NCBI GenBank assembly: GCA_019058245.1
Contig: JAHPZJ010000019.1
Span: 46,697-110,696, forward strand
Source: Promethearchaeota archaeon
GTDB lineage: Archaea; Asgardarchaeota; Lokiarchaeia; Sigyniarchaeales; SOKP01
Direction: 5' to 3'
DNA length: 64,000 nt
A model generated the notes under the pieces. It made no database searches. It saw only the letters and a program-made list of their open reading frames with translations, and was not told the origin of the DNA. The translations under genes were made by a program, and so were the position numbers. Each line of letters begins with the position of its first letter. The first letter of the stretch is position 1. Below, one piece after another: positions 25,664 through 42,190 of the stretch.

Positions 25664-27742
25664 ATACAATCTATAAATGGCATTATTTGTAATGCATTAG
25701 GATTTTATAATAAAAATTTAAAAATAATCGAAACATTAAATTCTCTTCTTTTTCGTCATATAATCACGAACCAAGCAAATTCTCTTATTCTTTTTGGAAA
25801 TATAAATGAAAGTAATTCAATTTCTATAACAGAAAAAATAAAACTTATCGATTTGATTTTAAATATCACCCCGAATAAAATCCCTATTATTATTGGTGTC
25901 TATGGTAATCATGCTGATGATGTTTTAGAACAAATAGAGTATTTAGGAAAGAAATTTGAAGTTCTAAATTTTATGATTTCTCCACCCTTTTCTGAAAAAA
26001 AACCAAAAGAAATTATAGATTCTTACTTTGAAAATATTCTAAGTTCAATAAATGTTAAAAATCAGATTTATTTAATTAATAATCCGCTCCAATTTGCTGG
26101 AAATGAAATCGAACCAGATTTATTAAAAAACTTAATGGAATATGAGAATTTGAAGGGATTAAATGATTCCTTTTATAATATCAAAAACTGTAAATCGTAC
26201 ATTCAATATTTAAATAACCAATTTTCAGTTTTTTGTGGAATGGAGGAAAATGCTCAAAGTTTTTTGCAACTTGTTCCGGTTAATCAAAGAAAATTCTGTG
26301 GGATAGTCTCTAATATCAGTAATTTAGTCAATATGAGTTCAAAATTATATAATTATGCGTTAGAAGATAATATCTTAGATTTGTTGCAATTGCAAGAACA
26401 AATTAATGATATGCGAAAAATGATTTATGAAATTAAAACAGATACGGATGAAGAATTAATTGGATTAAAATACGCATTTCTATATTTATATAGAGACGTT
26501 ATTTTAGAAACAGATAAAGATATAAAGTTAATTTCTGAAGAAATTCGTAATCAAATTAACCCAATTAGTAAGGAAAAAATCGAGGCTATCGTTAATTCCT
26601 TATTAAATAACAAACATATTTATCGATTATATCATGTTGGCAAAGGAGATTTTTATCAATTCGATGAAATCATAAAAACTTTTTCTAATTTTGAAGTTTT
26701 AGTTAAACAAGGTAAAGTGAAAAAAATCAAAGAACCTTATGTTTCTGATATCAATACCCTTAATAGAGTAAATTTTGAAAATAATCAATTAGTTTTTAGA
26801 TTTCGCACCGGTCAATTAAAATCAGTTGAAAATTTAATCAAGGAAAAACTCTTATATCCTTTTTTAGATAAGACTTTAAATCCTGATGATTTTGAGTTAA
26901 GAAATAAAGTGAAAGAAATCATCAATACAAAGACAGGTTCATATATCTTCAATAAAGATAAACCTCCAATAATTCCTGTTTGTAATTTACTTTACTATGA
27001 TGAAACTCAAGAAATAATTCCCTATCTTTTCTCAGTAGAAGAGTATATTCGAGGAAAACCTTTATCTCAACTAATCAATCAATATACTAGCGAAGGAAAA
27101 AATTTAAACACAACTAAATTTCTGAATTTATTCAGTACATTGGGAGAACATCTTGGAAACTTACATAAAATAAAATTTGATACGTTTTATAATAAAATTA
27201 TCAATATCGGAAAAACTAAAGATGTATCATACGGTGAATTATTTGAAACTGAATTAGAACAAAAAATACGTGAAGCTACAAAAAATCAATTAGATTTTTC
27301 TGATGAAATAAGGAAATATTATCAAGATAATAAGGTTTTAATTGAAGATGAAAATGAGTTTGTAATTTTACATAATAATTTTCAAAGTGAAAACATTATT
27401 GTAAAAGAAGAATCAGGGATGATAAACATTAAAGGTTTTGTAGGTTTTGATTATTGGAATATTGGTAATAGAGCTCAAGAATTTATCAAAATTGATTATT
27501 GGCTCTCAAAATTTTTGAATTTCCCTTCATTTTATAATGCTTTTTATAATGCATATTCTAAATATCATAAAGTAAATAGTGATTTTAAGAAAAAAATAGA
27601 ATTATTCAAATTAATCTGGTTATTAGATAAATATAATTTAGAATATGATTTAATAAAAAGGTCAGATCAGAAAGAACTTCTCAAAACGCTAAAATTATCA
27701 TTAGAAAGCAATATAGATGAAATGAAAGTCATAATTCGATAA
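25664..27742 (+). CDS. DapA-like TIM barrel fused to an APH/choline kinase-like domain; both appear catalytically degenerate. Probable ATA start at 25664.
   Basis: The frame is open 63 codons upstream of the TTG at 25853 and encodes a DapA-like N-terminus (IQSINGII...LILFGNINE...ITEKIKLI). The C-half contains EEYIRG, LGNLH and LHNNFQSENIIV. Confidence 0.75.
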   Translation: MQSINGIICNALGFYNKNLKIIETLNSLLFRHIITNQANSLILFGNINESNSISITEKIKLIDLILNITPNKIPIIIGVYGNHADDVLEQIEYLGKKFEVLNFMISPPFSEKKPKEIIDSYFENILSSINVKNQIYLINNPLQFAGNEIEPDLLKNLMEYENLKGLNDSFYNIKNCKSYIQYLNNQFSVFCGMEENAQSFLQLVPVNQRKFCGIVSNISNLVNMSSKLYNYALEDNILDLLQLQEQINDMRKMIYEIKTDTDEELIGLKYAFLYLYRDVILETDKDIKLISEEIRNQINPISKEKIEAIVNSLLNNKHIYRLYHVGKGDFYQFDEIIKTFSNFEVLVKQGKVKKIKEPYVSDINTLNRVNFENNQLVFRFRTGQLKSVENLIKEKLLYPFLDKTLNPDDFELRNKVKEIINTKTGSYIFNKDKPPIIPVCNLLYYDETQEIIPYLFSVEEYIRGKPLSQLINQYTSEGKNLNTTKFLNLFSTLGEHLGNLHKIKFDTFYNKIINIGKTKDVSYGELFETELEQKIREATKNQLDFSDEIRKYYQDNKVLIEDENEFVILHNNFQSENIIVKEESGMINIKGFVGFDYWNIGNRAQEFIKIDYWLSKFLNFPSFYNAFYNAYSKYHKVNSDFKKKIELFKLIWLLDKYNLEYDLIKRSDQKELLKTLKLSLESNIDEMKVIIR

Positions 27743-30216: not shown

Positions 30217-31305
30217 TCATGTGTATGCAAAAGGTAATAAACTTATTTGTCTAACTTTTTGATTTTTTTCTAAATTTGATAATTTGATCCCTACTAATCG
30301 TACTTTTCTTTTTTTATCAGAGAATTCTTTGAATAATTCCAAGATAATCTTTAAAACATATTTTTCATCTTGAATATGAAACGGCAATGTTCTCGAACGA
30401 GTATAAGTTATAAAACCTTCAAATCTAATTTTTAAGGTAATTGTTTTATATGTAATATGATGCTTTAATATTGATTTATGAATTCTTGTATTAATATCTT
30501 CAAACTTCGATAAAATTTCATTAAAGTCATCTGTATCTGAGAGAAATGTTCTTTCTGCGCTGATAGATTTCCTCTCTTCATAAAATTCTTTAACTTTACG
30601 ATGGTCTAAACCATTTGCGACATTCCAAATCCATTTTCCATGTTTTCCAAATAATTTTATCATCGTGGGTAAAGGTGTTTTTATAATATCCCCGATTTTT
30701 CTAATTCCCTTTTTAACATAATATACTTTAGTTTTTTTACCAATACCCGGAATACGGGTAATATCCTTTTCTTTTAGAAAGTCAAATATTTTCTCGGGTT
30801 TTACAATTGTAATCCCATTAGGTTTATTTTCATCAGAAGCAATTTTAGCCAAGGATTTTGTTGGAGCAATACCAATTGAAATTGTAATGCCAATCTTTTT
30901 AAAAACTTCTTTTTGGATGTTATTTGCAATTTCATAAGCCTTTTCAAAATTAAGAGTAATCTCTGTTAATTCTAAATATGCTTCATCTGTTCCAACTTTT
31001 TGAAAGTTAGAACTATATCTCTCTAATAGTTCCATTACCTCATTAGATACTTTATGATATTTATTACCATTGGGTTTTAAGTAAACCCCATGAGGACATT
31101 TTCTATATGCCAAGGATATAGGCATAGCAGAATGTAAACCATACTTTCTAGCTTCGTAATTACAGGTTGCTATAACACCTCTTCCTTTACCTTCTTTTGG
31201 ATCTGCTCCTATTATAACAGGTTTACCTTTCAACTGTGGATTATCTCTTATTTCCACTGCCGCAAAAAAGCAATCAAGATCGCAGTGTAAAATAATACGA
31301 CTCAT
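30217..31305 (-). CDS. dinB: Y-family DNA polymerase IV (DinB/Dpo4)
   Basis: HCDLDCFFAAVE, YEARKYG, TDEAY, AKIASD..KPNG; PIP-like QISLLPF. Confidence 0.95.
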   Translation of the reverse strand: MSRIILHCDLDCFFAAVEIRDNPQLKGKPVIIGADPKEGKGRGVIATCNYEARKYGLHSAMPISLAYRKCPHGVYLKPNGNKYHKVSNEVMELLERYSSNFQKVGTDEAYLELTEITLNFEKAYEIANNIQKEVFKKIGITISIGIAPTKSLAKIASDENKPNGITIVKPEKIFDFLKEKDITRIPGIGKKTKVYYVKKGIRKIGDIIKTPLPTMIKLFGKHGKWIWNVANGLDHRKVKEFYEERKSISAERTFLSDTDDFNEILSKFEDINTRIHKSILKHHITYKTITLKIRFEGFITYTRSRTLPFHIQDEKYVLKIILELFKEFSDKKRKVRLVGIKLSNLEKNQKVRQISLLPFAYT

Positions 31306-31542: not shown

Positions 31543-34500
31543 ATGTCTGATATCGAACTTTTAGAGGAATATAAAGGTGTATTTACAGATTTAATAAAAT
31601 CTGGAAAAAAATATACTTATTTAGTGGGGGCAGGTATTTCAATGGATCCCCCCTCAAGTATCCCATCTGCAAGGGAAATAGTGAGAGCTATGTTAGAATT
31701 ATGTGCTCCTATGGAAGAAATTAATAATCTATTATCATTGAGAACACTTCGTTATGAAATGATGATTGAAAAGATAAAAAATAACGTAGATAAAAATCTA
31801 CATTTTTTAGATTATTTGGAACTAATTGACCAACCTAATTATATTCATTATTATTTAGCGAATGCTGTAGCAAAGAGGCAAGACTATGTTGTTACAACTA
31901 ATTTTGATTTTATGATTGAAAGAGCTCTTCAAAATATTATCCCTCCTGAAAAACAGAAAGACATCCTTCCAGTTATCACTAGGGACGATTTTGATACTAA
32001 ATATAGACCACATGACCTTTATACCGAAGGAAAATTCCCAATCTACAAAATCCATGGTTCAAAGCGAGATATTATTACGGCAAAAGATACTAAGGATTCT
32101 CTAATCACAACCATGGCCGCACTAGGTAAAGATAGAGAAGTGCAAGAGACCTTTGCTCTGGAAACTTATAAGAAACAGGCTATTTATAATTTAATGAAAG
32201 ATCAAACACTTATCGTGATGGGATATTCGGGATCTGACGATTTTGATATTGGTCCTACGTTAAAAACTATAACTTATCTTGATGAATTAATTTGGATAGA
32301 ACATAGTCAGGATGAAAAAATATTAAAAATTAATAAAAATCTCTCAGGAAAAACATTAGATTCATTCTCTCATTCAGAAAAATTACTAATTGAGATTGCT
32401 ACGCAAGCTGATTTCGATGTTTTTCTAATAAGAATTAATACAAGTAAGTTTGTAAAGGAAATTCTATGGCAGAATTTATTAAGTGAAATTTCAATTCCAA
32501 TTTTCGATAGTTTAAAAATAAAAGAAATTCCAGATTTTAAAAACTGGGTTCAGAAAGAGTTTAAAGACGTTAGCCTGTCAGAAGTAAAAAAATATATGAT
32601 TTCTTGTAGTATCTATAATGAGTTAAGTCTAAGCAATGAGTGCTATTCAAATGCAGAAAAAGGGTTAAATTTAGCTAAATTAGCAAAGGATAATGATTCA
32701 CAGACCTTTTTCCTAAATTATCTTGGCACTCATAATCTTAAAAAGGGAGCCCTTGAAGAAGCTGAGAATTATTTTAGAGAATCATTAAAATTATCGGAAG
32801 AATTAGAGAATCCATTGAAAAAAGCTATTGCATTGTCTAATCTTGGACATTTAATAATGAAAAAAAATGAACTAAGACTAAATTTCAATTCTAAAGAAGC
32901 TCGTGAGATAACGCTTGAAGCATTACAACTTTTTGATAAAGAAAAAGATAGCATAGGAAAACTGGCATGTCTTAATAACCTTGCTGAGGTATATCTATGG
33001 GAAGGATCCTTTCTAGAAGCTATGCAAGATTTAATGAATGCTCTTACATTGGTAATGGATATAGGAAACTTAGAGATTAAAGCAACAATTTCGAATAACA
33101 TTGGTTGGATTACAAGTAGAGTATTATTAGAAGATAGTCTAAAAGTTTCTATGGAAAAAATTAATGATGCATTAAATATTAGAGATCAAATTGGAGATAA
33201 AAGCGGATTGGCAAATTGCTTGCGAAATATTGGAGATTTGAATTTTAACTTTCATAATTACAATCAAGCACTTGAATATTACATAAAAGAATTAGAGTTA
33301 AGAAACTCATTAGGCGAAGTAAAAGAAAAAGTAGCAGCTCTTATATCAATTGGTTGGGTTTATTATAGAATGAGAAACCTTAATGAAGCTTCAAAGTCAT
33401 TTCAAAAAGCATTAGAGATTAATAGGAAATTAAATGATAAACTCCATATTGCCTATAATGCTTCTGCATTAGGATATATTTCATATTTACAAGGTGAGTT
33501 AAACACTTCTATTGATTTTTTTAGAGAATCTCAACAAATCTATTCGGATTTAAAAATTGAAGCAAAATTAAAAGAAATTCAATTGTATATAGATTTCCTA
33601 GAATTAAGAACTTCTGAAGTCCAAAAAGACACTTTAATTAACCTTTTACCCCCCGCTATTAAGGATCTCGAAGATATAAGGGAACAACAAAAGGTTTTAG
33701 AAACAGATGTTTGTAAAAAAAGAGGTCCGATTGATATATTAAACCAATCTCTTTATCTTATTTATCATGGAATACTGCATGCATTAAAAGATGACCTTCA
33801 AAAAGCTAAGGAAAAGATTGAGGGCGGGTTATATTCCGCGTATATTTCCGGAAACATGGAAGAGGTTTTTCCTTTATATAAAGGAATAATTGATTCTGGT
33901 CTATTAATAAGACCTTTAAATCTTGAACGAACGAGGTTTGATTATGTTTATCGGGATGATAATATAATATCCCCAGAAGAAGCTGAATGGCTCCATAGTA
34001 GTTATTCGAGGAAAAAATTAACTGTAGCCCATGATTTATTCGAAGAGGCTTACAATGATTCTCAACTCGGCAATAATCAAATTGCAATAGAAAAATTTGA
34101 AAAAGCCAGAGAAATCTACGAAGAATTCGATGAAATTGAGTTTATAAACACCATTGATAATTATATCACTACCATAAAAATGATATCAGGAGAATTTGAT
34201 AATTCTGTTGAAAGTTTGGATCAACACCTATTTAAACAAGTGAAATCAACCATTGATATTGGTAATAAACAAGCTACTGAGGGAGACCTGGTAGGACTAA
34301 AGCATAACGTAAAAATTGCCTCTCAAATGAAAGATAGATTAGAAAATTTAAGACATAAAGATGATACATATAATCAGCTTTATAATATGCTTGGAGATTT
34401 TATAAATAATAATGAAGCAAAAGTGGCTGATGTCAACGAGGAGGATATTTCATATAAGGGAACACATGAATTTACTAAAGTTGCTGATGATCTAGTTAGA

Positions 34501-37038
34501 CAAGAAGCTATAAGAAAAGATAAAGCTCGGGAGCTATTTGAATCAATCGGGATTGGTGATAATGAAGATGCTGGAATTGATCTAACTACTATGGGCACGA
34601 TTATAGACGATAGAGAGAAATTTATTCATGAACATTCAGAAGAATGGTTGATAACACTGAATAAATTAATAGCTATGGCAGATTTGGCTGGATCGATGGG
34701 AAAAATGAAAGATAAAGTTGAAACAATGATATTCATTGGTAAATATTTCCAAAGTGCAGATGAATTAGAAGCGGCCTTATCTAAATACCAAGAATGTCTA
34801 AAAAATGCTTTAACAATTGGGCATCAAGAATTTCAAGCAAAAAGCTTAATCCGTATGGGCGATGTACTGTTTAATCAAGGAAAATATGAAGACTCTCTTG
34901 ATAATTGTGAAAAATCATTAAGAATCTTTGAAGAACTTAAAAAAGAAGAAGAAAAAATCGAACCTCTTAATCTAATTGGAAGGATATATGCTCAGAGAGG
35001 TGATTTAGAAAGGGCTTTCAAACGATTAAATGAGGCTATAGAAATCGATACTAATGAAAAGGAAATAATTGCTTATAAGGCTGATTCTTATGGACGTTTA
35101 GGGGAATTACATAAACAACAAAATAATTTTCTCGAAGCTTATGATAATTTCTTTGAGGCATTATATATTTATGAAGAATTAGAAGGAAAAGAGCAAATGT
35201 TAGCACCTCTTCACTATAATCTGGGTCTTTTAGATAAAAGTATTAACGATGTGGAAAAAGCACTTACTAATTTTGAAGATGCATTGTCTATATATCAAGA
35301 AATTAACTTTCTTGATTATGTACCAAAGTTACAAGAAGAAATTAATATTTTAAAAGCAAGACTCTCTAATCCAGAAACCAAGGGAGAAGATAAAGCTAAA
35401 CTTGCATTAAAATGCGCAAAATTATATTTATATGATGATGCTTTGGTAGCCTCTAATGAAGCAATCGAGATTTTTACTTCGATAGGAAAATTGCCAGAAA
35501 AAGCACAGATGCTTCAACTTTCGGGAGAACTTAATGATGCCTTAGGAGAGATTGAAGAGGCTAAATATCTCTTTAATGAAGCTCTAATAGCTTATAATGA
35601 AATTGGTAATCATGAAAAGATCGAACAAGTAAAAGACTTTTTAAATAAAATAAACGAAGCAATAGCAGATCCTGAATATATGATTCAATATCTTAATAAA
35701 AAGGTAGAATCTCTCCTTAATGACGGTAAAGAATCTGAAGCACTTTTAAAATATAGTTCTCTGCTGAATTTTTATGATCAAATACAAGACGTAATCGGGA
35801 AGGCAACCTGCTTCCGAAACATAGCAGATATTCATTACAACAGACAAGAAGTAACTGAAGCTATGGATAATTACCTGAAATGTATAGAAATATTTGAGAA
35901 GAATAATGAGAATTCGGAAATTGTACCTCCACTACAAAAAATGGGTTATATTTATGAGCAACAATTCGAATATGAAAAGGCTCTGGAGTATTTCCAAAAA
36001 ACTCTGAATATTACCCAAACTACAGAAAATCAGTTTGGTATAGGAATAGCTTTAATAGATATAGCAAGGATATTACAAACCCAAAAGAAGTTGGATAAAG
36101 CTTTAGATTTTTATAAGCAATCCTTGGAGATTTTCGAACAATTGGATAATAATAACAATATCGCTTATATTTTCAAAATGATAGGCTTAGTTTATGATGA
36201 ACAAGGAAAGTTTGATAAAGCATTAGATGTATTGGAACAAGCACGCGCTTTATATGAAGAGTTAAATAATAAGGATGCGCTTGGGGGAGTATATAATTCG
36301 TTGGCAAATATTTATGAAAGTTTGGGGAAGTTAGATGATGCTCTAAAATATTATAATAACGCCTTGGAAATCTCAGAAGAAGTCAATGACATTTCAGGAA
36401 AAGCAGCATACTTATTTAATATAGGCCTTATCTATAGTTCAAAAGAAGAATATACCATAGCATCAGAACATTATGATGAAGCAATGGTCATTGCTGAAGA
36501 ACTTAATCTCCCACAATATAAGGCACCATTCTTACTTGGGATGGGATTAATTGATAAAAAATTAGGGAACTTAGATACTGCTCTGCAAAAATTCAATAAA
36601 AGTCTTGAAATTAACGAACGAATTGGATATTCCGAGGGAATTATAGAATCTTTAAATAATATTGGAAATATCTTTTTGAGAAAAGGAAACCTAAATTCTG
36701 CTGAAGAATCATTCACAAGAGCGTTTCAATTAGCTGAAAAAATAGATAGCATCAAGAAGAAAGCATATTGTCGTAGTGCTATGGGAGATCTATATCGTTA
36801 TCAAAACGATATACATAAAGCGTTAGACATGTACAAAGATGCATTAGAAGTTTTCGAACAATTGGAAATTAAGGAAGAAATTGCGTATAACCTCAAAAAA
36901 CTCGGAAAAACTTATTTCAAACTAGGTGATAAAACTAAGTATATAGAAGTTATGCAAAAAGCAAGTGATTTATACGCAGAAATAGGATTAGAGAAAAAAG
37001 TAAAACATATCCAACAAGAGTTAAATTCTAATTCTTAA
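31543..37038 (+). CDS. SIR2-like (NADase-type) domain fused to extensive TPR repeats, 1831 aa
   Basis: LVGAGIS, VTTNFD, IYKIHGS and MGYSGSDDFDI in the first ~250 aa; many ~40-aa TPR units follow. Confidence 0.9.
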   Translation: MSDIELLEEYKGVFTDLIKSGKKYTYLVGAGISMDPPSSIPSAREIVRAMLELCAPMEEINNLLSLRTLRYEMMIEKIKNNVDKNLHFLDYLELIDQPNYIHYYLANAVAKRQDYVVTTNFDFMIERALQNIIPPEKQKDILPVITRDDFDTKYRPHDLYTEGKFPIYKIHGSKRDIITAKDTKDSLITTMAALGKDREVQETFALETYKKQAIYNLMKDQTLIVMGYSGSDDFDIGPTLKTITYLDELIWIEHSQDEKILKINKNLSGKTLDSFSHSEKLLIEIATQADFDVFLIRINTSKFVKEILWQNLLSEISIPIFDSLKIKEIPDFKNWVQKEFKDVSLSEVKKYMISCSIYNELSLSNECYSNAEKGLNLAKLAKDNDSQTFFLNYLGTHNLKKGALEEAENYFRESLKLSEELENPLKKAIALSNLGHLIMKKNELRLNFNSKEAREITLEALQLFDKEKDSIGKLACLNNLAEVYLWEGSFLEAMQDLMNALTLVMDIGNLEIKATISNNIGWITSRVLLEDSLKVSMEKINDALNIRDQIGDKSGLANCLRNIGDLNFNFHNYNQALEYYIKELELRNSLGEVKEKVAALISIGWVYYRMRNLNEASKSFQKALEINRKLNDKLHIAYNASALGYISYLQGELNTSIDFFRESQQIYSDLKIEAKLKEIQLYIDFLELRTSEVQKDTLINLLPPAIKDLEDIREQQKVLETDVCKKRGPIDILNQSLYLIYHGILHALKDDLQKAKEKIEGGLYSAYISGNMEEVFPLYKGIIDSGLLIRPLNLERTRFDYVYRDDNIISPEEAEWLHSSYSRKKLTVAHDLFEEAYNDSQLGNNQIAIEKFEKAREIYEEFDEIEFINTIDNYITTIKMISGEFDNSVESLDQHLFKQVKSTIDIGNKQATEGDLVGLKHNVKIASQMKDRLENLRHKDDTYNQLYNMLGDFINNNEAKVADVNEEDISYKGTHEFTKVADDLVRQEAIRKDKARELFESIGIGDNEDAGIDLTTMGTIIDDREKFIHEHSEEWLITLNKLIAMADLAGSMGKMKDKVETMIFIGKYFQSADELEAALSKYQECLKNALTIGHQEFQAKSLIRMGDVLFNQGKYEDSLDNCEKSLRIFEELKKEEEKIEPLNLIGRIYAQRGDLERAFKRLNEAIEIDTNEKEIIAYKADSYGRLGELHKQQNNFLEAYDNFFEALYIYEELEGKEQMLAPLHYNLGLLDKSINDVEKALTNFEDALSIYQEINFLDYVPKLQEEINILKARLSNPETKGEDKAKLALKCAKLYLYDDALVASNEAIEIFTSIGKLPEKAQMLQLSGELNDALGEIEEAKYLFNEALIAYNEIGNHEKIEQVKDFLNKINEAIADPEYMIQYLNKKVESLLNDGKESEALLKYSSLLNFYDQIQDVIGKATCFRNIADIHYNRQEVTEAMDNYLKCIEIFEKNNENSEIVPPLQKMGYIYEQQFEYEKALEYFQKTLNITQTTENQFGIGIALIDIARILQTQKKLDKALDFYKQSLEIFEQLDNNNNIAYIFKMIGLVYDEQGKFDKALDVLEQARALYEELNNKDALGGVYNSLANIYESLGKLDDALKYYNNALEISEEVNDISGKAAYLFNIGLIYSSKEEYTIASEHYDEAMVIAEELNLPQYKAPFLLGMGLIDKKLGNLDTALQKFNKSLEINERIGYSEGIIESLNNIGNIFLRKGNLNSAEESFTRAFQLAEKIDSIKKKAYCRSAMGDLYRYQNDIHKALDMYKDALEVFEQLEIKEEIAYNLKKLGKTYFKLGDKTKYIEVMQKASDLYAEIGLEKKVKHIQQELNSNS

Positions 37039-37122: not shown

Positions 37123-37809
37123 ATGGCAATAAACAAAGAAGATCAACTTCGAATAGACGTTGTTAGAGGAGCAAAAGCAGTTTTTACAAAAGGATTAGTA
37201 GAAGCTGGAGAAGGAAATGTGAGTGTGAGACATGGAAAGAAAGAAGAATTATTCATCACACCTTCATTTAATCAATATGAAACACTTAAAAAAGATGAAA
37301 TTGTTCATTTAAATTTTGAAGGAACCTCCATAAGTGCGGGGAAATTACCTTCAACGGAAGCAAAAATGCATATTGAGATCTATAAAACAAGACCGAAAGT
37401 ACAATCAATAATTCACACACATTCACCTTTTGCTACCATGCTCTCAATCGTAAGAAAAAGTATCCCAGTTATAATGGAAGAAATGTATATCTTTTTAGGT
37501 GGATCTGTCGATGTTTCGGAATTTGGAGAAGCTCATACTTTAGAAATTGGTGAAGCTGCATTAAAAGCTCTAGATACAAAAAATGCAGCTCTATTAGCGA
37601 ATCATGGGGTTATTGTTTGTGGAAAATCATTAGACCATGCAATTAAATTTGCCGAGTTAGTAGAGAAGCTTGCTAAGATGTATTGGGGGTCTTTACAAAT
37701 TGGAACTCCCTATGTAATTTCTGAGAAACAACTTGAACCATTTGAAAAACTCTACGAAAGTATGTTTGCAAACTATCCTCGACATTTGCGAAAAAGAATA
37801 GAAAAATAA
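37123..37809 (+). CDS. Class II aldolase/adducin family (fuculose-1-phosphate aldolase-like)
   Basis: GNVSVR, ITPS, PSTE..MH, HTHS, LANHG. Confidence 0.92.
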   Translation: MAINKEDQLRIDVVRGAKAVFTKGLVEAGEGNVSVRHGKKEELFITPSFNQYETLKKDEIVHLNFEGTSISAGKLPSTEAKMHIEIYKTRPKVQSIIHTHSPFATMLSIVRKSIPVIMEEMYIFLGGSVDVSEFGEAHTLEIGEAALKALDTKNAALLANHGVIVCGKSLDHAIKFAELVEKLAKMYWGSLQIGTPYVISEKQLEPFEKLYESMFANYPRHLRKRIEK

Positions 37810-39108: not shown

Positions 39109-39963
39109 TTAGTCAAAACGAAGTGAAAAATCAACGCTTTCTGAAGGAAATTGAGTCAATTTTCCTGTGCTTATTACATCAGGTTCTGAAAGTAAATAAT
39201 CTACAATGTTATCTTGAGTTATACCTCCAGAAATTTCAATTATTACTTTATCTCTCAGATTATTTTTTTTTAGTAAATTGATTACATCTTCTACTTGATC
39301 TGGTCCCATATTATCTAACATAATGATGTCTGCTCCATTTCTGGCAGCTGTCAGGACATCTTCGACTTTTTCTATTTCTATTTCAATTTTTTTCGAAAAA
39401 CTCTTCTTTTTTTTACATTCATCCAACAATTTCACTATGTCTCCACTGAAATATCTTAGATGAGTATCTTTTAATAGAATCATATCATCCAATGAAAACC
39501 TGTGAACATCTGCTAATCCAATTTCAGCAGCTTTTTTATCAAAAATGCGAATTCCGGGAGTTGTTTTACGTGTACAGGCAATTTTAACATTTTTTCCAGA
39601 CTCTTTAATTAATTTAACATATTTTCTAGCAGTAGTTGTAATAGCACTCATATGTACAATTAAATTTAGTCCTGTTCTCTCCCCTAATAAAATATTTCTT
39701 GCATTACCTATTAATTCTACAACGATATCTCCATTATTAACCCCATCTCCATCTTTCTTTTTAAAAGAAGTGGAAACGTTTAAAATGTCATATAATATTT
39801 TCAATTCATTTAATCCAGAAACAAACCCTCTACTCTTAGCAAATATTTTAGCCGAAGCATTAGCATTCTCAGGAATCACTTTAGAACTAATATCGATAAA
39901 CCTACAATCTTCCTGTAAAAATTCCTTTATTTTTTGTTCAATTATAATTCTATTATAACTCAT
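39109..39963 (-). CDS. nadC: Nicotinate-nucleotide diphosphorylase (carboxylating)
   Basis: ER..LN, TRKTTPG, HRF.L.D..L.KD.H, IEIE, MLDN, SGGI. Confidence 0.95.
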   Translation of the reverse strand: MSYNRIIIEQKIKEFLQEDCRFIDISSKVIPENANASAKIFAKSRGFVSGLNELKILYDILNVSTSFKKKDGDGVNNGDIVVELIGNARNILLGERTGLNLIVHMSAITTTARKYVKLIKESGKNVKIACTRKTTPGIRIFDKKAAEIGLADVHRFSLDDMILLKDTHLRYFSGDIVKLLDECKKKKSFSKKIEIEIEKVEDVLTAARNGADIIMLDNMGPDQVEDVINLLKKNNLRDKVIIEISGGITQDNIVDYLLSEPDVISTGKLTQFPSESVDFSLRFD

Positions 39964-40018
39964 CTTTCGCACATTTTTCTATAGTATTATTATTATAGTA
40001 TAAAAATTAATTAAAATT

Positions 40019-41791: not shown

Positions 41792-42190
41792 TTATAAACT
41801 TGAGAGTTTTTCTAAATCATCTTGAGAGTTTTCAACAGCCCAATCAAGGAGTTGATCAAAATATCTTTCTACATCATCGGTTTCAGGTGATTTCGACAGA
41901 ATAGCTAAAATAAATTGATTCTTATCATCAGGCATGATAATATTCCTCATCATGATAAAATCCTCTTTGTACTTTATCTTCATACTCATTATCTCAGAAA
42001 GATCTAGCTCCTCGGCTGCTTTATATGCAGAATCACTCAATAACGATCCCATAGCTGCTACAACACGTTCATCAATCTTTTCTTCTTTTTGAGATGCTAA
42101 AACAAGTCCAGTTGAGGTAGCGAAAAGTGACGCTCGAAAATTTCCATTTTCATTAAGTTCTTTAAGTACTAGATCAAGTCTACTTACCAA
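41792..42190 (-). CDS. Roadblock/LC7 domain protein
   Basis: L..L......SLFATSTGLVLAS...ERVVAAMGS.L pattern; 132 aa. Confidence 0.85.
   Translation of the reverse strand: MVSRLDLVLKELNENGNFRASLFATSTGLVLASQKEEKIDERVVAAMGSLLSDSAYKAAEELDLSEIMSMKIKYKEDFIMMRNIIMPDDKNQFILAILSKSPETDDVERYFDQLLDWAVENSQDDLEKLSSL

Follow-up and report, generated by a model that had tools for sequence, protein, structure and literature searches.

NAD+-cleaving enzymes (NADases) of the SIR2 type are a main effector of prokaryotic immunity, and a human relative, FAM118B, acts in innate immunity. To our knowledge, DSR2 is the one case in which the control of a SIR2 effector is understood in the absence of a nucleotide switch. 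In the accessible part of the report on this protein, DSR2 consists of an N-terminal Sir2 domain, a MID and a CTD sensor and forms a constitutive tetramer, which is switched by the phage tail-tube monomer through a conformational change (PMC10981675). For ThsA, Avs5, KomC and FAM118B, the titles of the PDB entries record an activation by filament formation. Eukaryotic SIR2 domains of the 'SIRim' type are fused to repeats, including 'TPR-like' ones (TPR, tetratricopeptide repeat), and their tripartite forms carry NACHT or NB-ARC, as described in the sections available of bioRxiv 10.1101/2024.09.18.613514. Here, we compare with these systems a giant gene of a Loki-type Asgard archaeon, located in a window of 64,000 nucleotides (the whole stretch of DNA analysed; assembly GCA_019058245.1, contig JAHPZJ010000019.1, positions 46,697 to 110,696). 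Its product carries a defence-type SIR2 domain in front of repeats of the TPR type. Within a larger family of SIR2-TPR paralogs, this giant is an accessory member that some lineages have and others lack.

The gene is a single uninterrupted open reading frame (ORF) of 1,831 codons with an ATG start and no internal stop, and its G+C content (0.30-0.31) resembles that of its flanks. The domain anatomy was derived from a Pfam scan of the protein cut into four pieces (Table 1). SIR2_2 was matched with 33.6 bits by the whole protein and with 36.6 bits by amino acids (aa) 1-345 alone (gathering cut-off 24.5), and the classical SIR2 model was not among the Pfam matches of the giant. The motifs GAGIS, TTNFD and KIHGS occur once each in the protein. 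Against TPR_12 the whole protein gave an E-value of 9.9e-108, with 12 stretches arranged in two blocks. Between these lies a middle region (aa 701-1100) for which no Pfam family was found above cut-off; its nearest ESM Atlas clusters are TPR proteins (feature search score 0.94, 171 shared features). Altogether, repeats comprise about 80% of the protein. NCBIfam and PADLOC returned only TPR-type matches plus a weak match to the SIR2 model associated with prokaryotic Argonautes, Aga_SIR2-PNTD (E 2.8e-7).

A single-sequence AlphaFold model of the SIR2 domain reached a mean predicted local distance difference test (pLDDT) of 32.7 and was replaced by an AlphaFold2 model based on a 74-row alignment of relatives (pLDDT 94.9, predicted template modelling score 0.93). 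With VIA-align, the best structural match of this model was the Sir2-APAZ protein of SPARSA (8y80_E, Z 22.8, root mean square deviation (rmsd) 3.3, 270 residues aligned), followed by SeThsA (Z 19.4), KomC (19.1), DSR2 (18.9), Avs5 (16.0 for 9jap_A, 15.7 for 9nc9_G), SIR2-HerA (15.6) and human FAM118B (15.0). The classical sirtuin, human SIRT3, scored lowest of the structures tabled (Z 14.4). Foldseek gave the same order, with the defence NADases first. At sequence level a phmmer search of the SIR2 domain against the PDB sequences gave no match and only a profile found any: a profile of 51 SIR2 domains from relatives (A2) matched SPARSA Sir2 with an E-value of 1.4e-4, with GAGxS, TTNFD, KIHG and GYSGxD all aligned, and KomC with an E-value of 0.029.

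The residues expected to form the active site are strictly conserved. N120 and H171 are invariant in 74/74 and 51/51 aligned relatives, as are D122 of TTNFD and K169, H171 and G172 of KIHGS in the aligned relatives. G29, A30, G31 and S33 of the glycine-rich loop and G227, Y228, S229, G230, D232, F234 and D235 of the fourth motif are invariant in all 51 relatives of the profile. According to the accessible part of the report, the equivalents of N120 and H171 in DSR2, N133 and H171, are needed for NADase activity (PMC10981675). The Zn-binding module of sirtuins was looked for as CxxC, which occurs nowhere in the giant; there are 12 cysteines in 1,831 aa, the sole one in aa 1-345 being C54. Because fold, motifs and the invariant N120 and H171 match those of defence NADases, the domain looks like an NAD+-cleaving type. 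Judged from sequence and model, it appears to have all features expected of an active SIR2 of the 'SIRim' subfamily without the Zn module of deacylases. A complex prediction with two copies of the domain gave an ipSAE of 0.00 in both runs, which were made without controls, and speaks neither for nor against self-association.

A nucleotide switch was looked for at several levels. The giant contains no Walker A motif, neither in the strict (G....GK[ST]) nor in the loose form ([AG]....GK[STQ]), and no nucleoside triphosphatase (NTPase) family was detected in its Pfam, NCBIfam and PADLOC scans. The strict pattern is absent from all 74 complete family ORFs obtained from the loci. Likewise, no NTPase or P-loop family is found among the 25 commonest Pfam families of the 74 relatives or in a Pfam scan of six atypical relatives, nor do the precomputed Pfam lists of 45 long relatives (1,007-3,205 aa) include one.

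These results bear out the observations of the original prediction, which had been made from the sequence alone, and part of its interpretation. It had described an N-terminal SIR2-like domain with the motifs GAGIS, TTNFD and KIHGS, of the type found in defence NADases, and had noted that zinc-finger cysteines and a Walker A motif are missing. The motifs were found at the places given, SIR2_2 is above its cut-off, and the assignment to the defence type agrees with the fold (Z 18-23 compared to 14.4 for the sirtuin) and with the invariant Asn and His. Its description of the remaining approximately 1450 aa as largely TPR is roughly right, with two strong blocks and about 400 aa in the middle that are degenerate and match no Pfam family. 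The absence of a cryptic STAND domain, on which the prediction had depended, is in line with the sequence evidence.

Table 1. Positions of the giant SIR2-TPR gene, its domains and motifs, its neighbours and a related locus of the same genome. Positions refer to the window unless a locus (L) is given.
Feature	Position	Strand	Evidence and remarks
Giant SIR2-TPR ORF	31543..37038	+	1,831 aa plus stop; orthologs L004, L005 and L006 align over residues 1-1831
SIR2_2 domain (defence-type, 'SIRim'), aa 1-345	31543..32577	+	PF13289; AlphaFold2 model; VIA-align
GAGIS, putative glycine-rich NAD-binding loop, aa 29-33	31627..31641	+	aligns with GAGTS of SPARSA Sir2
TTNFD, candidate catalytic Asn120, aa 118-122	31894..31908	+	aligns with TTNFD of SPARSA Sir2 and TTNYD of KomC
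KIHGS, candidate catalytic His171, aa 169-173	32047..32061	+	aligns with KIHG of SPARSA Sir2
GYSGSDDFDI, fourth conserved SIR2_2 motif, aa 227-236	32221..32250	+	aligns with GYSGRDE of SPARSA Sir2
TPR block 1, aa 346-700	32578..33642	+	TPR_12 E 1.1e-27, 6 stretches; also TPR_1, TPR_2, TPR_10
Middle region (helical and TPR-like, without Pfam family or P-loop), aa 701-1100	33643..34842	+	Pfam, ESM Atlas
TPR block 2, aa 1101-1831	34843..37035	+	TPR_12 E 3.5e-87, 9 stretches; TPR_2, 12 stretches; TPR_MalT E 1e-33
DinB/Dpo4-type polymerase gene, left border of slot	30217..31305	-	IMS and IMS_C domains
Class II aldolase gene, right border of slot	37123..37809	+	Aldolase_II
nadC (quinolinate phosphoribosyltransferase), 2,071 bp downstream of the giant; membership of the feature doubtful	39109..39972	-	TIGR00078 273 bits (cut-off 198)
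Paralog of about 803-819 aa with nadB, contig 4 of the window's genome	L085:6033-10169	-	also loci L011-L033, L064
nadB, contig 4 of the window's genome	L085:6033-7604		NF006567, TIGR00551

Among the known systems, DSR1 and DSR2, the latter from Bacillus subtilis, are those most similar in design: like the giant, DSR2 unites in one chain an N-terminal SIR2 NADase, a helical middle part and a large helical sensor, and has no NTPase. Its N133 and H171 correspond to N120 and H171 of the giant (rmsd 3.4 over 245 aligned residues). Effector-plus-repeat SIR2 proteins lacking an NTPase are thus already known, but the giant fails the DSR profile test and uses canonical TPRs. The identity of the SIR2 domains is 16-17%, and no DSR1 or DSR2 model of PADLOC was matched; at E <= 0.1 the giant matched only TPR, Aga_SIR2-PNTD, C3a198 and C3a156. 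Where DSR2 has MID and CTD, the sensor of the giant is nearly twice as long, and the giant is archaeal, belongs to a set of paralogs and lies outside defence islands.

The SPARSA Sir2-APAZ proteins, partners of short prokaryotic Argonautes, are the best match both by structure and by profile, and Aga_SIR2-PNTD is the only SIR2 hit of PADLOC. Unlike these, the giant has neither an APAZ domain nor an Argonaute neighbour; its C-terminus consists of TPRs and its flanks are the DinB and aldolase genes. Avs5 (AVAST type 5, SIR2-STAND) shares the N-terminal SIR2 effector on a large receptor, whereas the giant lacks the STAND NTPase that defines Avs. ThsA of Thoeris and KomC (HAM-SIR2) share the SIR2 NADase fold, but the giant locus has no SLOG or Macro ligand-binding domain and no adjacent ThsB (TIR) or KomB. 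Eukaryotic 'SIRim' proteins (FAM118B/SIRanc and the fungal and animal SIRim-NACHT-TPR proteins) belong to the same SIR2 subfamily by fold. The similarity of the giant to FAM118B does not exceed that to the bacterial enzymes.

Instead of being a unique protein, the giant is one branch of a large paralogous family. An exhaustive HMMER search with aa 1-345 yielded 1,699, 753 and 320 cluster representatives at E-values of up to 1e-3, 1e-10 and 1e-30, respectively, with the entire 345-residue module aligned in proteins of 263 to 3,154 aa. A scan of one genome per species gave 342 relatives. All but one of the best 80 of these are in records titled Asgard archaea or 'uncultured archaeon', among them those of Promethearchaeum syntrophicum MK-D1 and Lokiarchaeum ossiferum, the exception being a 'Nanopelagicaceae' record that is nested within an archaeal clade of the tree. 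Of 201 genomes sampled from the phylum, 40 contained a match (threshold E <= 1e-10): 35/40 in the window's own Asgard family, including both cultured Loki strains, 3/3 in a second family of the same order and 1/10 in one further family; none was found in the other families of the sample. The number of matches per genome ranges from 1 to 8, with 5 hits in each of the two cultured strains. The genome of the window has three copies: besides the giant, contig 4 carries one of 819 aa and contig 20 one of 827 aa. In public records these proteins are named 'tetratricopeptide repeat protein', 'SIR2 family protein' or 'hypothetical protein'.

All of the 74 relatives contain SIR2_2, 61 contain TPR_12 and 16 contain MIT domains. 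In atypical relatives the SIR2 module is internal or is combined with additional domains: P0106, P0170 and P0172 have an N-terminal DUF4062 ahead of a TPR-SIR2-TPR arrangement, and in P0169 and P0171 the module is combined with leucine-rich repeats (LRRs). For P0169, EF-G domain IV and C-terminal families are also in the precomputed Pfam list. The SIR2 module was used for a quick maximum-likelihood tree (77 rows; the only support values are those of the SH-like approximate likelihood ratio test), in which the seven giants are grouped with a support of 90, below the star threshold. The approximately 803-aa group linked to nadB was recovered (94), together with several well-supported groups of fixed length. 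The close orthologs L004, L006 and L005 are 65-99% identical to the giant per 100-residue window, and the only insertions and deletions among them are a 59-residue insertion in TPR block 1 (L006) and a 5-residue insertion and a 1-residue deletion (L005). Three distant giants are 51-58% identical in the SIR2 module, with values down to 13-34% in the remainder.

Some further members deserve mention. Frames of 1,355-1,374 aa form a subfamily in 13 genomes of a neighbouring genus, with a SIR2 module 33-39% identical to the query (e.g. G121:C6:83612-84505 and G065:C15:42640-43515). Two features were noted at the giant of L. ossiferum (1,760 aa; L026:4190-5731 (+) and G227:C1:5306020-5306514): an adjoining IS110-family transposase gene and, about 6 kb downstream of its SIR2 start, another SIR2-like gene of greater divergence (882-aa frame, E 2.8e-14). 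Another giant (L007) adjoins a Csa3-like regulator. A composite transposon around the 812-aa copies of L065, L076 and L078 was considered and rejected, the flanking inverted 378-aa ORFs being unrelated (E 5.5).

The neighbours of the giant are housekeeping genes, encoding the DinB-type polymerase, inositol monophosphatase, RidA, the class II aldolase, AP_endonuc_2, NikR, NadC, SRP54, AMMECR1 and Roadblock/LC7 proteins. Together with the record titles of relatives, the Roadblock/LC7 gene supports an Asgard origin of the window. The DinB and aldolase genes are held apart by the 5.8-kb giant gene in the window. In 5/5 genomes of the same genus (95-100% complete) this slot is empty, with the two genes divergent and about 185 bp apart, and three other metagenome-assembled genomes carry a giant in exactly the same slot. 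The giant gene is therefore accessory within its genus. Of the 40 matching genomes among the 201 sampled, a single one had a frame of more than 1,500 aa, and the middle region as a query was not found in 60 other genomes of the same family. An alignment of empty and filled spacers showed only AT-rich, poorly alignable sequence and no signature of a target-site duplication. nadC occupies the same position in 5/5 genomes without the giant, indicating that its proximity predates the giant or is independent of it. At the ortholog locus L006, about 3.4 kb are inserted between the inositol monophosphatase and DinB genes (L006:1019-4678), adjoining a second copy of part of the DinB 3' end (aa 302-362; 80% identity).

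The molecular reading of the giant as a repeat-gated, NAD+-cleaving SIR2 protein without a nucleotide switch appears well grounded in this anatomy. The SIR2 domain would bind NAD+ via the GAGIS loop and cleave it with Asn120 and His171, and the about 1,450 residues of TPR and TPR-like solenoid would form a protein-binding platform that restrains the SIR2 activity. In such a single-chain sensor-effector, with no nucleotide switch, a protein ligand bound to the repeats would release or assemble the SIR2 domains. Activation may proceed by allostery in an oligomer that already exists, as for DSR2, or by the assembly of filaments, as for ThsA, Avs5 and KomC. The ligand-triggered oligomerisation originally proposed is therefore one of two known modes, DSR2 being a constitutive tetramer in the accessible part of its report (PMC10981675). 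NAD+ would then be consumed and the cell would stop growing. Loki-type Asgard archaea would most likely use it against viruses or mobile elements, in a response of the conflict or abortive-infection type. Domain anatomy, fold, invariant residues, the lack of an NTPase, family structure and the presence/absence polymorphism are shown by the data, NADase activity, gating by a ligand and an immune role are what we infer for the giant, and we give the combined reading, a DSR-like SIR2 effector without NTPase that has a repeat sensor and an immune role, nearly an even chance. A role in conflict or immunity is supported by the SIR2 subtype, by domain shuffling of a receptor-like kind, by a copy number that varies and by the fact that the giant is accessory.

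More tentatively, the whole family may represent pattern-recognition NADases of Loki-type Asgard archaea that lack an NTPase, with the SIR2 domain as a 'warhead' on interchangeable TPR, LRR and MIT sensors. Each genome would then hold several paralogous receptors, some chromosomally fixed, including one wired to de novo NAD+ synthesis (nadB), and others, like the giant, gained, lost and exchanged. This would amount to an innate-immune repertoire organised like the repeat receptors of eukaryotes, but switched directly by the ligand.

Several observations weigh against an immune role. Ratios of non-synonymous to synonymous substitution rates (dN/dS) were calculated by the NG86 method per region (SIR2, TPR1, middle and TPR2) in three ortholog comparisons. 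They are 0.15-0.41 in every region and in all three comparisons, with 0.17-0.27 for the whole length, 0.16-0.26 for the middle region and 0.16-0.41 for the TPR arrays, which on average show no positive selection. The flanking genes have similar values (DinB 0.12-0.16, aldolase 0.08-0.25). The whole 1,831-residue protein is kept by purifying selection with no region diversifying, and the gene is functional. Near-identical TPR units, tandem or dispersed, were not found at DNA level, indicating that there was no recent repeat amplification. Both the low dN/dS and the absence of near-identical repeats are unlike fast-evolving receptors. The 74 complete ORFs fall into length-fixed subfamilies at about 600, 750, 803-812, 945-1055 and 1,708-1,890 aa. 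All three copies of the window's genome lie in a housekeeping context, and there is no enrichment of defence islands in a survey with PADLOC and Pfam of the 149 ORFs within two genes of the 48 loci not linked to nadB. The defence-specific PADLOC hits among these were Csa3 (2), Cas1, CARF, a reverse transcriptase and a type IIG enzyme (1 each), and the mad2 (6) and pVip (3) hits had the same numbers as generic methyltransferase and radical-SAM domains. The Pfam tallies of these neighbours are led by ferredoxins, methyltransferases, decarboxylases and Ras/Arf GTPases. In the viral contigs scanned with the A2 profile 105 pattern stretches were matched, none of which was confirmed as a relative, and PADLOC reported no system-level hit for the giant.

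With purifying selection, no repeat amplification, no defence enrichment, no confirmed relatives on the viral contigs scanned and a subfamily fixed at nadB, the one-gene immune receptor of the original prediction is not demonstrated. PADLOC gave hits at domain level only, with no DSR1, DSR2 or Avs model, and the neighbouring genes confirm the housekeeping surroundings outside a defence island that had been noted. The domesticated signalling role, at first mentioned as a fallback, stays a serious rival.

According to this rival, which we regard as possible but clearly less than probable, the family is an endogenous NAD-linked signalling or regulatory scaffold. Its TPRs would bind conserved host proteins, and the SIR2 domain would sense or consume NAD+ (or ADP-ribosylate or deacylate a partner), coupling cell state, stress or NAD+ supply to a response, with the giant as one specialised paralog. 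Apart from the purifying selection in all regions, the old, diverged repeats, the housekeeping contexts without defence enrichment and the lack of confirmed relatives on the viral contigs scanned, it draws on the genes for NAD+ biosynthesis. The genes of the approximately 803-aa subfamily share their orientation with nadB (L-aspartate oxidase) and lie immediately upstream of it in 21/74 loci and in the genome of the window, with gaps of 85-130 bp (105 bp in the window's genome). nadB scores 694.6 bits with NF006567 (cut-off 629) and 566 bits with TIGR00551 (cut-off 452.75). The TPR part is 55-92% and nadB 70-93% identical between the nadB-linked loci. Fixed length and conserved TPRs beside nadB point to conserved endogenous partners. 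However, the block also holds unrelated genes (a low-molecular-weight phosphatase upstream of the paralog and ADH synthase beyond nadB), so that the linkage may be plain inherited synteny.

In the genome of the window, each of the three paralogs has a nad gene in its vicinity, at a distance of 105 bp (nadB), 2,071 bp (nadC) and 12,141 bp (nadA, G000:C20:70430-71338, near the third copy), for which the nominal chance is 1.3e-5, calculated post hoc. A CobB-like classical sirtuin (L086:6136-6897 (+), 201 bits, below the equivalog cut-offs) is encoded 1.9 kb from the third copy and may be added to the points for an endogenous role. A PINA-type Holliday-junction ATPase (L086:6916-8556 (-)) is encoded just upstream of the same copy. 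The proximity to NAD genes did not recur when four other genomes, those of the two cultured strains among them, were examined: 0/20 SIR2 hits were within 80 kb of nadA, nadB or nadC, and a general link of the family to NAD biosynthesis was rejected for this reason. An endogenous role also has to face that nadC is in place without the giant, that the giant is dispensable within the genus and that the solved structures nearest to its SIR2 domain are all immune NADases.

The synonymous divergence (dS) of the giant is below that of the flanking DinB and aldolase genes in all three comparisons, at 0.3-0.65 times their values (0.07 vs 0.22; 0.09 vs 0.20-0.32; 0.53 vs 0.82-1.03). This could be due to an exchange of the gene between lineages or to codon constraint.

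It is rather unlikely that the SIR2 domain is catalytically quiet and serves as an NAD+/ADP-ribose-binding or assembly module in a TPR scaffold, e.g. in a chaperone-like or a cytoskeleton- or ESCRT-associated adaptor (ESCRT, endosomal sorting complex required for transport). MIT domains are ESCRT-III-binding modules, and their presence in 16/74 relatives would fit such a role, as would the high share of repeats in the protein. Nevertheless, the invariance of the catalytic Asn and His and of all motifs of the NAD pocket (51/51, 74/74) is hard to explain without catalysis. Even less probable, and in our view improbable altogether, is a true sirtuin, a protein deacylase that is brought to its substrates by the TPRs. 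The SIR2 fold is shared with SIRT3 and the catalytic His is conserved, but SIR2_2 is matched and not the classical SIR2 model, Zn-ribbon cysteines are missing, the fold is clearly closer to the NADases (Z 18-23 vs 14), and a separate CobB-like sirtuin is encoded in the same genome. That the giant is an Avs/STAND-type receptor of the known kind, with an NTPase hidden in its middle region, is hardly conceivable: the order of effector, middle region and TPRs resembles that of Avs5 (9jap_A), but neither a Walker A motif in the giant or the 74 family ORFs nor an NTPase family in any scan was found, and the middle region is TPR-like by its ESM features.

No description of an Asgard-concentrated paralogous SIR2-TPR family, nor of the combination of DUF4062, SIR2 and TPR, was found in the parts of the literature accessible. 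Neither 'SIR2' nor 'TPR' occurs in the main text of two surveys of Asgard defence (PMC11291487 and PMC13700489), whose supplements may list such genes. The family is abundant and concentrated in the archaeal lineage closest to eukaryotes, and it is present in both cultured strains. Should it be immune, Asgard archaea would have a defence family that has been missed so far, and structural work would gain a natural series of SIR2 receptors with repeats. Should its role be endogenous, archaea would offer in it their first example of a defence-type SIR2 taken into cell regulation or NAD+ homeostasis.

Two further genes were noticed elsewhere in the window. A 629-aa ORF (25853-27742 (+)) is unusual in its domain pairing, with aa 4-193 forming a DHDPS-family segment and aa 374-568 one of the APH-type phosphotransferases. 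Small Roadblock/LC7 proteins are reported to be typical for Asgard archaea, and the one encoded at 41792-42190 (-) was matched with an E-value of 1.9e-4, just under the Pfam cut-off.

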